Assembly: GCA_003598085.1 (NCBI GenBank)
Contig: QZKU01000042.1
Coordinates: 28,138-92,137 of the forward strand
Reading direction: 5' to 3'
Length of the DNA stretch: 64,000 nt
DNA from: Candidatus Abyssobacteria bacterium SURF_5
Lineage (GTDB): Bacteria; Abyssobacteria; SURF-5
Each line of letters begins with the position of its first letter. Within the stretch, counting starts at the first letter, position 1. A program made the translations under genes and the position numbers. Positions 36,747-42,249 of the stretch are shown piece by piece. The notes beneath the pieces were generated by a model. That model had not been told where the DNA came from, did no database searches, and saw only the letters and a list, made by a program, of their open reading frames with translations.

Positions 36747-36939
36747 GATCGGTCTCCTTCGAATGTGGTGGTATTCCCCATTCCTGGATGCTGCGACTGT
36801 GACAGATGTAATTTTGGGGAGAGGAATGGGGGGCTGCATGTTTGCAATGACAGGGGAATTCTATCTGGCGGGATGCCGGTTGTCAATCCTTTTGTGGCGA
36901 GGGGCGCGACTGGAGGCGCGACGCCCGCTTATGTGATGC

Positions 36940-36968
36940 TTGACAATTGGTTCCGCACGTTTTATGAT
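36940..36968 (+). promoter_or_regulatory. Sigma70-type promoter for the VOC / aconitase X operon
   Basis: TTGACA (36940-36945), a 17-nt spacer, then TATGAT (36963-36968), 52 nt upstream of ATG 37021. A direct repeat GGCGCGAC-TGGA-GGCGCGAC lies just upstream (36903-36922). Confidence 0.45.
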
Positions 36969-37020
36969 GCCCGTGCCAGAGAGCCAATTTCATGTACGTG
37001 GAAAGGACCGGAGAATCAAC

Positions 37021-37470
37021 ATGTTAAAAGAAGTCCATCATACCGGCTTGAGCGTGACCGACATTGACCGGTCGCTCGAGTTGTACCGCGACATTTTAGG
37101 ATTTGAGATCCAGTGGGATGCCACGATCGAAAACATTCCGGAGTTCGGCACCGTGATCAGTCTGCCGGGCGTGAAGGAGCGCATCTGCATGATGCGGCTG
37201 AACAACTGTCGGATCGAGTTGTTCCAGTTCTACGAGCCGAAGGGCAAGAAAATTGAGCGGCGCCAGTGCGACCTCGGGTACATGCATGTTGCGTTCGTAG
37301 TTGATGAACTCGAAGAAATCTGCCGAAAGCTGAGGGAGAAGGGGATCGAGTTTTATTCGAAGCCGCAGGACCTGGGGATTTATGAGGTCGTTTTCTTCAA
37401 GGGCTTCGACGGCGAGACGATCGAGTTGATGAGGCCGAAAATAGGAGAGTTTTCGAAGCCCAAATCTTAA
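37021..37470 (+). CDS. VOC (glyoxalase/bleomycin-resistance/dioxygenase) family protein
   Basis: MLKEVHHTGLSVTDIDRSLELYRDILGF ... HVAFVV ... is the typical paired beta-alpha-beta-beta-beta module. ATG at 37021. Confidence 0.8.
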   Translation: MLKEVHHTGLSVTDIDRSLELYRDILGFEIQWDATIENIPEFGTVISLPGVKERICMMRLNNCRIELFQFYEPKGKKIERRQCDLGYMHVAFVVDELEEICRKLREKGIEFYSKPQDLGIYEVVFFKGFDGETIELMRPKIGEFSKPKS

Positions 37471-37511: not shown

Positions 37512-38735
37512 ATGAAATTGACCAAACAACAGCGGGCGATGCTCGAGGGCGAGCAGGGGCCGATCATCGCGATGGCGATGAATTACTTGGTGAAATACGG
37601 TGAGGCAATGAGCGCGGAGAAGCTGATTCCCGTTCAGAACGTGCACACCGTATTCACAATACCGATGGGCGGAGACGCCGAGCAGGTGGTAGGCCTGCTG
37701 AAGATGTTCGGCCAGCACCGCGTAAAGGTGCCGACGACGACCCACGTCGGCTTCCTCGATTTCAGGAAATGGCGCGAGTTCGGCATCGAGGAATCACGCT
37801 ATGAGCTGCAGGCTTCGCTCGTTCCGATCGCCGCGCAGGCGGGCATCCAGCTTACCTGGACGTGCGCGCCGGAGATCATGGGCAACGCTCCGCTGAAGGG
37901 GCAGACCTGCGCGTGGATGGAATCGGCCGCGATCAGCTATGCGAACGGCATCCTCGGCGCGAGAACTAATCGCGAGGGCGCGGAATCGACGATGCCGGCG
38001 GCTGTCACCGGCTTCATCCCGTATTTCGGCAACCACATCACCAAGAACCGTCGCGGCACGATTCTGATTGAGGTCGAAGCCGACCTGGAAAATCTGTCCG
38101 ACTGGGGCACGCTCGGCTACTTTGGAGGAGAACAGGCGGGGCTCGGAGTTCCCGTCTTCAAAAACTGCCGTGTGCCCGCGCTCGAGGAAGCGAAGGAACT
38201 GTGCGCCGCGCTTGCGACCGAAGGCGGCGTCGGCATGTTTCATATAGCCGGAATCACTCCCGAAGCGCCGACGGTCGAGGCCGCTTTTCAGGGCCGCAAG
38301 CCGAAGAGCCGGCACAAATTCACCAACAAAGAGAAGAAGCGAATTTACAAGCGGCTGAATAATTGTCCCTCGCCCGAGGTGGACATCGTGATGCTCGGGT
38401 GCCCGCATGCTACGTTGACGGAGATCGTCGAGGCGGCTCACCTGCTTGATGGGCGGAAAGTTTCTCCGAACACGCAGTTCTGGGTCTGTACGACCGAATC
38501 GATCCGCGCATACGCCGAGAAGCTTGGGTATGACAAAATGATTTCCGATGCCGGCGGCAAGATCATGGCCGATACCTGCCCGTGCATCAGTCAGATCGAG
38601 ATGGCGCGCAACAAGAGGTACATGACGAATTCGGTAAAGCAGGCATATTATGCGCCGGGGCAGATCGGGGCGCAGGTGCATTTCGCGAATACGCGCGATT
38701 GTGTCGAGGCGGCGATAAAAGGAAGAAGGAGCTGA
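37512..38735 (+). CDS. Aconitase X catalytic (large) subunit, DUF521 family
   Basis: 407 aa. MKLTKQQRAMLEGEQG N-terminus and conserved Cys-containing regions (GCPHATL, DTCPC) typical of AcnX large subunits. Confidence 0.8.
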   Translation: MKLTKQQRAMLEGEQGPIIAMAMNYLVKYGEAMSAEKLIPVQNVHTVFTIPMGGDAEQVVGLLKMFGQHRVKVPTTTHVGFLDFRKWREFGIEESRYELQASLVPIAAQAGIQLTWTCAPEIMGNAPLKGQTCAWMESAAISYANGILGARTNREGAESTMPAAVTGFIPYFGNHITKNRRGTILIEVEADLENLSDWGTLGYFGGEQAGLGVPVFKNCRVPALEEAKELCAALATEGGVGMFHIAGITPEAPTVEAAFQGRKPKSRHKFTNKEKKRIYKRLNNCPSPEVDIVMLGCPHATLTEIVEAAHLLDGRKVSPNTQFWVCTTESIRAYAEKLGYDKMISDAGGKIMADTCPCISQIEMARNKRYMTNSVKQAYYAPGQIGAQVHFANTRDCVEAAIKGRRS

Positions 38736-38770: not shown

Positions 38771-39187
38771 ATGGCGAAAACATTGACAATAAAAGGCAGG
38801 AAGGTGGTCGGCGGGCAGGCGGAGGGCGAGGCTCTGATCGCGGATGAGCGTGTCTCGTTCTGGGGCGGAACGGACCCCACGCGCGGCGTCGTTCATGAAG
38901 TCGGCAGCAAGTTCGAGGGCAAAAGCTTTGCCGGAAAAGTCTTCATTTTCCGATTCACGAAAGGCTCTTCAGGCACGTCGGCCTACATCAATATCGCAGC
39001 CCGGCTCGGAGTCGCACCCGCGGCCATCATCAATACGGAACTCGATTCGCTCTGTGTGCTCGGATGCGCGATTGCCGACATCCCGATGATGACCGATCTC
39101 GATAAAGACCCGTTCAAGGTCATCAAGAACGGCGACTGGATCAAGCTTGATGCGGACGCAGGCACGATCGAAGTGACAAAGAAATAG
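38771..39187 (+). CDS. Aconitase X swivel (small) subunit, DUF126 family
   Basis: 138 aa. GEALIADERVSFWGGTDP..G and FTKGSSGTS motifs. It follows the large subunit directly. Confidence 0.8.
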   Translation: MAKTLTIKGRKVVGGQAEGEALIADERVSFWGGTDPTRGVVHEVGSKFEGKSFAGKVFIFRFTKGSSGTSAYINIAARLGVAPAAIINTELDSLCVLGCAIADIPMMTDLDKDPFKVIKNGDWIKLDADAGTIEVTKK

Positions 39188-39335: not shown

Positions 39336-41213
39336 ATGGATATTTTCCTCACCCCAAAAAGCGTTGCTATCATCGGCGCTTCGACGAATCCGATGAAGTT
39401 CGGCAGCATCATCATGGCGAACCTGTTCAATATCGGATATGAAGGCAAGATTTTTCCGGTCAATCAGAAAGCCGAGCCGATCGCAGGGCTTACCACGTAT
39501 CGCTCGGTGATAGAGATACCCGAACCGGTCGATCTCGCCATTTTTGCGATACCGGCGTCGGGCGCGCTGGAAGCAATGCGCGACTGCGCAGCCAAAGGCG
39601 TCAAAGGAGTTGTAATAATTTCCTCCGGATTTACCGAAGCCGGCGAGGAGGGCGAGCGCCGCCAGCAGGAGTTGCTCGATGTTGCGCAGGTGGCGGGCAT
39701 TCGCGTCATCGGTCCCAACACCACCGGGATTCTGAACCCGATCGATCGCTTCACCACCACGTTCGTTCCGCTGCAGGAGGTAAAGGCGGGACCGGTTGCC
39801 TTCATCGCGCAGACGGGCATGTTTGCTGGAATGCTACTGGAATGGATTCTGTCATCCGAATGTTTCGGAATCAGCCGCGTGATCGGACTGGGCAACAAAT
39901 GCGACGTCGACGACGCCGACGCTCTCGAATATCTCGCGGACGATGAGCACACCAAGGCGATAATGATGTACATCGAGGCGATCAAGGACGGCAGGCGCTT
40001 CATGGATGCCGCACGCGCGGCGGCATTGAAGAAGCCAGTATTCGCGCTGAAATCAGGCGAGACCGGCGAGGGCGCTCGCGCTGCGATGTCGCATACAGGT
40101 TCGATGGCCGGAAACGACGCGATCACATCGGCTGCTTTCAAGCAGGCCGGCATTATCCGCGTCGATTGCTTTCAGAAACTCATCGACTACGCCAAGATGC
40201 TTGCGTATCAGCCGGTGGCGAAGGGAAACCGGCTGGCAATCGTTTCGTTGTCGGGTGGAGCGGCGGTCATGTCGACGGACGCCGCCATGAAGGCGGGATT
40301 CCAGCTCGCGCATTTCTCCAATGAGATACTGGCCGAAATCCAGAAAGAATATCCTTTGTGGGCGACCGTTCGGCATCCATTTGATATCGAGCCGCTGACG
40401 GAAACGGTCGGCTTCATGCCCGCGTTCAAAAAGACCGTTCGCTGTGCGCTCTCGAACCCGGACACGCAGGTATGCCTCATCGTCACATGGACTCCGTTTG
40501 CCGGAATGGGCTACTCGTTCGAGTTCATCAAAGAGATGCAGGAAGAGTACCCGGGCAAGCCGGTGGCTTTCTGCTCGATCGGTTATAAGAACAATCATGA
40601 AGCCCTTTTCCAACAACTTGAAGCAAAGCAGATTCCTGTTTATTCCAGTTTTACGCGCGCGATCGATGCGCTTGCGGCTTCAGTCGAGTACGGCAAATTC
40701 CTCGCTTCGATCCGGCAGGCAAAGCTGGAAGAGAGAAGGTTTCTGAGGTCGGAGCGGCCAAAAACAAAGCCAGCCGCCGGACCGAAGAAGCCGGATTCGC
40801 GTGAACGTCACGAGAAAGTGACGGTCTTTTTCGATGGCGCCTCGCGCGGCAACCCCGGCCCGGCCGCGATCGGAATTGTCGTTAAAAATCAAAACGGCGA
40901 AACGCTCAGCGAGGTCAGCGAGGCCATTGGGAAGGCCACCAACAATTACGCTGAATATACCGCCCTTATCCGCGCGCTCGAAGAGGCGAGGCGGCTCGGG
41001 GCGACCGAGGTCAAGTGCCTGTCCGATAGCGAACTCGTGGTCCGGCAAATGAAGGGCGAATATGGCATCAAGAGCAAGTCGCTCCTTCCCCTCGTCAGCG
41101 AGGCACAAGCGCTCCGGCGCACATTCCACAGATTCGGCATCCGCCACATTCCCCGCGAGCAGAACAAGCGGGCCGACCAGCTTGCGGGATTGGCGCTGAA
41201 GAAGCAAAATTGA
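39336..41213 (+). CDS. NDP-forming acyl-CoA synthetase alpha-like module (CoA-binding plus ligase-CoA domains) fused to a C-terminal RNase HI domain
   Basis: 625 aa. N-terminal VAIIGASTNPMKFG...IFPVNQK and the phospho-His loop MSHTGSMAG. The C-terminal ~130 aa (about 40815-41210) read FFDGASRGNPGPAAIG...NNYAEYTAL...LSDSELVV...NKRADQLA, a complete DEDD RNase H set. There is no ATP-grasp domain. Confidence 0.8.
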   Translation: MDIFLTPKSVAIIGASTNPMKFGSIIMANLFNIGYEGKIFPVNQKAEPIAGLTTYRSVIEIPEPVDLAIFAIPASGALEAMRDCAAKGVKGVVIISSGFTEAGEEGERRQQELLDVAQVAGIRVIGPNTTGILNPIDRFTTTFVPLQEVKAGPVAFIAQTGMFAGMLLEWILSSECFGISRVIGLGNKCDVDDADALEYLADDEHTKAIMMYIEAIKDGRRFMDAARAAALKKPVFALKSGETGEGARAAMSHTGSMAGNDAITSAAFKQAGIIRVDCFQKLIDYAKMLAYQPVAKGNRLAIVSLSGGAAVMSTDAAMKAGFQLAHFSNEILAEIQKEYPLWATVRHPFDIEPLTETVGFMPAFKKTVRCALSNPDTQVCLIVTWTPFAGMGYSFEFIKEMQEEYPGKPVAFCSIGYKNNHEALFQQLEAKQIPVYSSFTRAIDALAASVEYGKFLASIRQAKLEERRFLRSERPKTKPAAGPKKPDSRERHEKVTVFFDGASRGNPGPAAIGIVVKNQNGETLSEVSEAIGKATNNYAEYTALIRALEEARRLGATEVKCLSDSELVVRQMKGEYGIKSKSLLPLVSEAQALRRTFHRFGIRHIPREQNKRADQLAGLALKKQN

Positions 41214-41298: not shown

Positions 41299-42249
41299 AT
41301 GGCCCAAATCATCACCGACAGAATCAAGATTGGCATCAGTGCGTGCAATTTCGGGGCGACTGTTCGCTGGAATCACCGGGGCTGGGATCGCCCGCTCCTG
41401 CTGGGCAGGGAGAAGAGCGATTTCATCTGGACGCCGGTGTGCCCCGAGGTCAACGCCGGTCTCGGCGTTCCGCGGCCGCCCGTGCGCCTTTCGGGCGGCA
41501 ATGGGCACGAGTTCTGGTCGGGCGCCGCCAAAATGAAGAATCGAGCGGGTGAAGATGTGACCACGCTCGTAAAGGAGGGCTATCTGAAGTCGCTCGATAC
41601 TCTCAGGCAGGCTCAGGTCGCGGCCTTTGTCTTCATGGAAGGCAGCCCCTCGTGCGGCGTGTATCGGACGACGCTCAGGGATCGCCGGCTTGGCCAACCG
41701 CCCGGCGCCTTCGGTTCGCTGCTCCTGAAAGATGGATATTTTCTGATACCGGCGATCGACCTTGAGAGTCCGGTGAAATGGTGGGATTGGCGGCGGCGCC
41801 TTCATTCATTCGTGTGGTTGAAACATCAGGAGATCGACTCGAAGAAACACATTTACGACATCTGGCATCTTTTAAAATTCATGTGCCAGGAGGTCGCCCC
41901 GAAGGAGTCGGCGGAAATCGGGCGGCGCCTTGCCGCGATGCCTTCAAAGTTCTCTCAGCCGTTTGCGGATCAGTGGAAGAGCGAGGTCCTGATGCTGCTG
42001 CGCAAACCGTCTACCCACGCCCGAATCGGCTCGATCATGCTCAAGCATTATGCGCATTACCGCAAGCACTTTAATCCGGCGGCAGGAGATATCAAGTCGC
42101 CACGCAGCGATATCGCAAAGCATGCATTCGTCCGGGAACTGCGGGAAATGGAGAAACGGGCGTACCTGGAAGGCTATGATTTTGCGGGGACTCCGGTGCT
42201 CTACAGGGCTTGTTCTCAGAGCCATCACTCTCTTCCTCCCACTTCTTGA
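41299..42249 (+). CDS. DUF523 (YbbK/TudS-like) plus DUF1722 (YbgA-like) fusion protein
   Basis: 316 aa. IGISACNFGATVRWN ... CPEV ... SPSCG Cys-rich DUF523 core, with a helical C-terminal half. Confidence 0.75.
   Translation: MAQIITDRIKIGISACNFGATVRWNHRGWDRPLLLGREKSDFIWTPVCPEVNAGLGVPRPPVRLSGGNGHEFWSGAAKMKNRAGEDVTTLVKEGYLKSLDTLRQAQVAAFVFMEGSPSCGVYRTTLRDRRLGQPPGAFGSLLLKDGYFLIPAIDLESPVKWWDWRRRLHSFVWLKHQEIDSKKHIYDIWHLLKFMCQEVAPKESAEIGRRLAAMPSKFSQPFADQWKSEVLMLLRKPSTHARIGSIMLKHYAHYRKHFNPAAGDIKSPRSDIAKHAFVRELREMEKRAYLEGYDFAGTPVLYRACSQSHHSLPPTS

Follow-up and report, generated by a model that had tools for sequence, protein, structure and literature searches.

The sequence analyzed here is a stretch of 64,000 nucleotides from Candidatus Abyssobacteria bacterium SURF_5 (assembly GCA_003598085.1, contig QZKU01000042.1, positions 28,138 to 92,137 of the forward strand), which we call the window. 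At window:39336-41213(+) it carries a single open reading frame (ORF), running from ATG to stop and encoding 625 amino acids (aa) (P0001), that joins the alpha module of an ADP-forming acyl-CoA synthetase (ACD) to a type-1 ribonuclease H (RNase HI) domain. An earlier interpretation made from the letters of the DNA without database searches, hereafter the sequence-only reading, had described this uninterrupted frame and suggested that it might encode a CoA- or acyl-CoA-responsive RNase H; the frame is confirmed, and we favor a different account of its function. That reading also knew of no earlier description of the combination, and our literature search likewise found no account of this fusion architecture. 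The names attached to it in databases are automatic only: "reverse transcriptase-like protein", "CoA-binding protein" and "acyl-CoA synthetase (NDP forming)/ribonuclease HI".

Domain layout of the fusion protein

Domains were called by running Pfam and NCBIfam profiles on the 625-aa protein. The N-terminal part matches the Pfam families CoA_binding_2 and Succ_CoA_lig (Table 1) and, weakly, Ligase_CoA_2 (residues 302-437, E 0.004), and the C-terminal part matches RVT_3/RNase_H at residues 493-618. Residues 1-455 can be aligned over their entire length with the solved alpha subunits 2CSU and 4XYL, SHTGS loop included, and TIGR02717, the NCBIfam model for the alpha subunit of acetate-CoA ligase, matches residues 3-452 with 444 bits. 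Because this score falls under the equivalog cut-off of 567, an acetate-specific assignment is not possible, and the alpha module is classified by its sequence as a member of the ACD family. The RNase H domain passes both of its Pfam cut-offs, with 82.6 bits for PF13456 (cut-off 21.6) and 47.8 bits for PF00075 (cut-off 25.8), and it also matches the NCBIfam models for bifunctional RNase H/acid phosphatase, haloarchaeal RNase HI and Thermoproteota RNase HI. Its matches in the PDB are 3HST (Rv2228c, E 1.5e-30), 3U3G and 4E19 (Halobacterium RNase HI). The Pfam name RVT_3 ("reverse transcriptase-like") is misleading here, and no retroelement is implied.

Table 1. Positions in the window of the fusion gene, its parts and the features upstream of it
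Feature	Position	Strand	Evidence or remark
Whole fusion gene, 625 aa (P0001)	39336..41213	+	AAAGG Shine-Dalgarno-like motif ~6 nt 5' of ATG
CoA-binding Rossmann domain, ACD subdomain 1, residues 8-134	39357..39737	+	PF13380 E 2e-23; PF02629 E 4e-13; aligns with 2CSU, 4XYL
Succ_CoA_lig flavodoxin-like domain, ACD subdomain 2, residues 151-289	39786..40202	+	PF13607 E 5e-53
Phospho-histidine loop MSHTGSMAG (H253), residues 251-259	40086..40112	+	Aligned to SHTGS loop of catalytic ACDs
ACD subdomain 5 (Ligase_CoA_2-like), residues 302-455	40239..40700	+	Pfam E 0.004; end-to-end 2CSU/4XYL alignment; pLDDT ~90
Interdomain linker, residues 456-493	40701..40814	+	Tail of last alpha helix, then disordered hypervariable stretch
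Type-1 RNase H domain (archaeal/Rv2228c type), residues 494-622	40815..41201	+	PF13456 E 3e-23; PF00075 E 2e-12
VOC/glyoxalase-family gene	36940-37470	+	Pfam
AcnX (aconitase X) large subunit	37512-38735	+	Pfam
AcnX small subunit	38771-39187	+	Pfam
Promoter-like site TTGACA-17-TATGAT	36940..36968	+	11/12 consensus positions; consensus match only

The sequence-only reading had seen CoA-binding and ligase-CoA domains, the phospho-histidine loop MSHTGSMAG, no ATP-grasp domain in the ORF or beside it, and an RNase H fold with all four DEDD carboxylates, and each of these observations holds. Pfam, TIGR02717 and the alignment with 2CSU and 4XYL agree on the N-terminal domains; the loop is present at residues 251-259; Pfam returns no ATP-grasp match in the fusion ORF or in the neighboring genes, and all ATP-grasp_5 matches of the genome lie on contigs other than that of the fusion. 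The four carboxylates are D500, E540, D564 and D614, in register with 3HST and 3U3G. An AlphaFold2 model calculated with the orthologue alignment consists of two confident folds (mean predicted local distance difference test score, pLDDT, 85.7), between which residues 466-491 score below 50. The phospho-histidine loop (residues 252-259) also has low pLDDT; in our reading of the model this may correspond to the mobile swinging loop of ACD enzymes. A complex prediction of the alpha module against the RNase H domain gave a score of 0.00, which is no verdict and is not counted as evidence.

Comparison with solved proteins places the two modules in different company. The alpha module aligns over its full length with PH0766 of Pyrococcus horikoshii (2CSU, E 5e-91) and with the ACD1 alpha subunit of Candidatus Korarchaeum (4XYL, E 4e-84), sharing with both the three subdomains and the SHTGS loop; unlike either, the fusion protein has an extra C-terminal nuclease domain. 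Pat/PatZ (9ISQ, 9IT0) resembles it in having a homologous CoA-binding and ligase-CoA region (E ~1e-51) and in carrying an ACD-like module on an unrelated catalytic domain. Pat-type acetyltransferases also contain an ATP-grasp part and a GNAT domain, and Pat chains measure ~880 aa vs 625 aa for the fusion protein, in which Pfam finds no GNAT match. The Pat structures have a deletion and no histidine in the phospho-histidine segment, whereas the fusion protein retains the catalytic loop, SHTGS, letter for letter as in the catalytic enzymes. By these comparisons the alpha module resembles a functional ACD alpha subunit more than a Pat-type sensor.

The RNase H domain belongs to the same RNase HI subfamily as Rv2228c/MSMEG_4305 (RnhC), with 3HST as its best PDB match and an E-value of 2e-38 against NF005567. 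That model is matched in the RNase H part only (profile positions 3-132 of 378), the C-terminal CobC portion of the Rv2228c type is not matched, and PF00300 (histidine phosphatase) has no match in the 625-aa protein. The two systems are alike in that RNase HI is joined to a metabolic enzyme by a linker that varies, as is also reported for MSMEG_4305/Rv2228c (PMC7466739). They differ in the partner, which is a histidine phosphatase (CobC) there and an ACD alpha subunit here, in the position of RNase HI, which is N-terminal there and C-terminal here, and in lineage; furthermore, the fused copy here is the only RNase HI of its genome.

Conservation, distribution and break-up of the fusion

The fusion is a genuine, single conserved gene that is restricted to one lineage. 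A protein search covering JGI, NCBI, ENA and Logan assemblies recovered about 20 protein clusters, 65-82% identical, with the full-length fusion architecture. Our sample of the phylum comprised 11 species genomes, ten in the fusion family and one in its sister family, and the fusion is intact in 7 of the 10 genomes of the family. Intact fused frames of 612-702 aa are present in G001, G003, G004, G005, G006 and G009; the copy in G008 is truncated by a contig end. The idea that two adjacent genes were joined artificially, by a frameshift in the sequencing, an overlooked stop or a chimera in the assembly, draws on one relative, G007, whose protein is unfused in databases (P0026, 468 aa, 69% identity), but the locus in question (L031:808-2871, G007:C14) has a run of N in the linker, and one short peptide-coding stretch occurs twice, once on each side of it. 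This split is a scaffold gap and the source of a false unfused protein in public protein sets, which rules out P0026 as a natural split. The sequence-only reading had pointed to orthologues with a stop or frameshift between two genes as what would overturn it. Because independent assemblies from different studies instead carry intact orthologous fusions, we consider a frameshift or chimera excluded and an artefact of any of these kinds extremely improbable. Other short close matches (P0023, P0024, P0025 and P0027) come from contigs of 1.7-4.2 kb or are labelled partial. Public reads amount to three soil-metagenome runs of one study with small word shares and include no RNA run; reads from two of the three gave short contigs ~90-97% alike that derive from relatives, and with none spanning 40700-40830 they are uninformative on the junction or on expression.

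An alignment of 22 fused orthologues shows how unevenly the parts of the protein have evolved. Compared with the protein encoded in the window, the alpha module averages 74.5% identity and the RNase H domain 68.4%, against 19.8% in the linker. H253, E214, D500, E540, D564 and D614 are invariant, as are the glycine motif for CoA binding and a large share of the CoA-binding and ligase-CoA cores; both modules are under purifying selection. The basic linker quoted in the sequence-only reading, KTKPAAGPKKPDSRERHEK, is indeed present in the window's protein, but its basic character is not conserved: across orthologues the linker is a low-complexity stretch of 23-118 aa with a net charge of -5 to +12 and no conserved motif or charge. 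The basic composition is a local trait found only among the closest relatives, and given this spread of net charge we rejected the linker as a nucleic-acid-binding element in the sense of a conserved feature.

The sequence-only reading also raised the possibility that the architecture is common and already characterized. It is uncharacterized, and when residues 300-625 were scanned against 1.84 billion representatives at 50% identity, a single representative (P0011) matched across the junction. The fusion thus arose once and has a narrow range: by this comparison of sequences it occurs in only one family, within a small candidate phylum. Further candidates for independent fusions were proteins of 600 aa in which several stretches matched and RNase H was C-terminal; those checked proved to be tandem RVT_3 repeats. 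In P0228, P0231, P0241 and P0287 (540-730 aa), which are among the best RNase H matches, the RVT_3 RNase H domain occurs three times in tandem, together with a SAP DNA-binding motif at the N-terminus. The nearest unfused relatives of the alpha module are ~50% identical, come from metagenome-assembled genomes labelled delta proteobacterium, Syntrophaceae, Proteobacteria and Nitrospinota, and have no AcnX neighbors. Within the one GTDB family, NCBI labels differ (Candidatus Poribacteria bacterium, Candidatus Abyssobacteria bacterium SURF_17 and uncultured bacterium; L046 JACRIR010000238.1, P0008), and at least one of these taxonomic names is likely misleading.

Two genomes bear on how the fusion arose and how it has come apart. 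In the genome of the sister family (G010) RNase HI stands alone, encoded by a 182-aa open frame with 45% identity. Within the fusion family, G002 encodes a standalone RNase HI of 163 aa with the DEDD residues intact, located 27 nt downstream of a VOC gene, and neither an orthologous alpha module nor AcnX was found in its genome. Maximum-likelihood phylogeny of the RNase H domains places the G002 protein within the clade of fused proteins, where its sister is the fused copy of its genus-mate G008 (support 100/98). Because it is nested there, AcnX and the alpha module must have been deleted secondarily, leaving the RNase HI gene; on this phylogeny G002 represents a secondary fission of the fusion in which a working RNase HI gene was kept.

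Host genome and gene neighborhood

In the genome to which the window belongs (G000; 5.1 Mb, 98.5% complete), PF13456 and PF00075 each match one gene, namely the fusion, and there is one RNase HII elsewhere; by these profiles the fused domain is the only detectable type-1 RNase H of the cell. The alpha module has more company. The genome holds 17 ACD-alpha-type genes, all with the catalytic histidine (for example L013, L017, L018 and L020-L022): four are full-length alpha-beta fusions of ~700-730 aa, one directly follows a free-standing ATP-grasp beta gene of 223 aa (L005:1486-2157), and the alpha-only genes are eleven others and the fusion. Besides the fusion, 12 alpha-type genes have no ATP-grasp in frame. 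Only five ACD-type ATP-grasp beta domains exist in the genome, four fused to alpha and one free. Alpha-only paralogues thus greatly outnumber beta domains, and relatives in the family show similar numbers. The fused alpha module is only 30-40% identical to its 16 paralogues in the genome.

A beta gene linked to the fusion was found in none of the genomes examined. Such an arrangement is not unusual for ACD enzymes, because in Pyrococcus furiosus the alpha genes are unlinked to beta and the beta subunits are shared, five alpha and two beta subunits giving ten active isoenzymes (PMC3942289). By analogy, the ATP-grasp beta subunit is probably supplied to the fused alpha module in trans.

Upstream of the fusion lie a VOC/glyoxalase-family gene and the two subunits of AcnX (Table 1), and the order VOC, AcnX large subunit, AcnX small subunit, fusion is repeated in six other genera. 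The AcnX small subunit is separated from the fusion by 148 nt, and no terminator-like site was found on the + strand between 39187 and 39336; the fusion is probably transcribed together with the VOC and AcnX genes. Two back-to-back promoter-like sites, each matching 11/12 consensus positions, lie at 36858-36968, one directed toward the VOC-AcnX string and the other toward a divergent M24 peptidase gene. At 36940 the TTG given as the VOC start falls on the -35 hexamer, and the real start is therefore probably further downstream. A role for the neighboring AcnX as a mevalonate-pathway dehydratase was considered and ruled out, because the genome has no match to HMG-CoA reductase; against the cis-3-hydroxy-L-proline dehydratase model AcnX scores 261 bits, far under the cut-off of 700. 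Downstream, an ORF of 316 aa at 41299-42249 is 2-thiouracil desulfurase-like over its first 150 residues only and has no Pfam or NCBIfam match in its C-terminal half, and it is not kept beside the fusion in relatives.

One chain, two modules

The RNase HI clade to which the fused domain belongs has formed fusions repeatedly. When the RNase H region was searched among proteins of 343-1094 aa (P0121-P0222), clade relatives with 45-56% identity proved, in metagenomic proteins, to have at least a dozen unrelated enzymes as fusion partners. The commonest by far is PurN formyltransferase; others are PhzF, HAD hydrolases, the beta-lactamase fold, Nif3, FMN-dependent dehydrogenase/IMPDH-type and CBS domains, ribulose-phosphate epimerase, histidine phosphatase (the Rv2228c type), inositol monophosphatase, FMN reductase, the PNPOx fold, arginase and tryptophan 2,3-dioxygenase. 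These architectures identify the clade as a promiscuous fusion domain for which the ACD alpha module is one more partner in the series. No systematic census of fusions of RVT_3-type RNase HI seems to be available. The best-studied comparison is MSMEG_4305/Rv2228c, for which it is reported that removal of the CobC domain hardly changed growth or hybrid levels and that the domains are functionally dissociated in vivo, with unequal evolutionary rates and a highly variable linker; the authors ascribe fixation of the fusion to drift (PMC7466739). The ACD-alpha-RNase HI pattern is the same.

We therefore favor, with a probability of roughly 60%, a lineage-restricted fusion of two catalytically competent modules that most likely act independently on one chain. 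Residues 1-455 would form a paralogue of the ADP-forming acyl-CoA synthetase alpha subunit and residues 494-622 an RNase H, held together by a disordered, fast-evolving tether. Given its family membership and intact active site, the RNase HI module is expected to cut the RNA strand of RNA/DNA hybrids in a metal-dependent manner, like the standalone enzymes of its clade. The alpha module would bind CoA and an acyl substrate and carry out CoA and acyl-phosphate chemistry at site I, with H253 being phosphorylated; its turnover would need an ATP-grasp beta subunit in trans, for which the candidates are the one free beta and the four alpha-beta fused ACDs, and its substrate may connect to the VOC and AcnX genes. 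The fusion probably arose at the base of the family through loss of a stop between adjacent genes, and it is probably kept because fission requires a new start signal, as in G002, and not because the activities are coupled. Independence is favored because the linker is hypervariable and predicted to be disordered, G002 has shed the alpha module, G010 has a standalone enzyme, the clade is promiscuous and the histidine loop is kept.

Several observations weigh against this account. The fusion has been kept in at least seven genera that have diverged to ~65% identity, which could reflect selection for physical linkage. In G001 the fusion directly follows the VOC gene and AcnX was not found anywhere in the genome, yet an intact alpha module is still fused to RNase H, so that this module is not simply an appendage of an AcnX operon. 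Finally, the fusion has a linked beta in none of the genomes examined, and the sole free beta adjoins an alpha gene of its own. The first two of these observations suit a functional coupling, of which the CoA- or acyl-CoA-responsive RNase H of the sequence-only reading is one form: the alpha module would sense or report metabolic state (CoA, acyl-CoA or phospho-histidine) and thereby gate or localize RNase HI, or an alpha dimer would make RNase HI bivalent. Such coupling would also fit the retention of the fusion in most genera of the family, the finding that in fusion-bearing genomes the fusion is the only RNase HI-type match, and an influence of the CobC domain on RNase H activity in vitro that is reported for Rv2228c (PMC7466739). 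We nevertheless regard it as unlikely. The linker ranges from 23 to 118 aa, conserves neither motif nor charge and is predicted to be disordered, the G002 lineage dropped its alpha module with RNase HI intact and standalone, and the fusion of the clade to many unrelated enzymes argues against a logic specific to one partner. The domains of MSMEG_4305/Rv2228c, moreover, are reported to be functionally dissociated (PMC7466739). The analogy with Pat-type sensors, on which the proposal leaned, fails in particular at the catalytic SHTGS loop, which is kept here and absent from the Pat structures.

The third observation, together with G001, could instead mean that the alpha module has no catalytic role and survives as a remnant or scaffold, a pseudoenzyme retained through its fusion to an essential RNase HI, and the TIGR02717 score below the equivalog cut-off could be read in the same way. 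We consider this still less probable than coupling. A hitch-hiking remnant would be expected to decay, whereas the alpha module is the more conserved half of the protein, and its phospho-histidine, E214 and CoA-binding glycine motif are invariant.

A more far-reaching version of coupling would tie the only RNase HI of the family functionally to a phospho-histidine CoA-ligase subunit, so that removal of R-loops or primers would be tuned by acyl-CoA or energy status, or RNase HI would become bivalent on an alpha dimer. We hold this to be quite improbable; if true, metabolism would feed directly into RNase H activity, in a way that has no described precedent. Any coupling of the modules would constitute a new link from central metabolism to the processing of RNA/DNA hybrids, and the present evidence points the other way. 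As it stands, an uncharacterized architecture serves as the sole RNase HI of a candidate-phylum lineage and adds one more member to the bifunctional RNase HI fusions. Its main value is that of a clean natural case of the rise and break-up of an RNase HI fusion, with a single origin, a secondary fission and a hypervariable tether.

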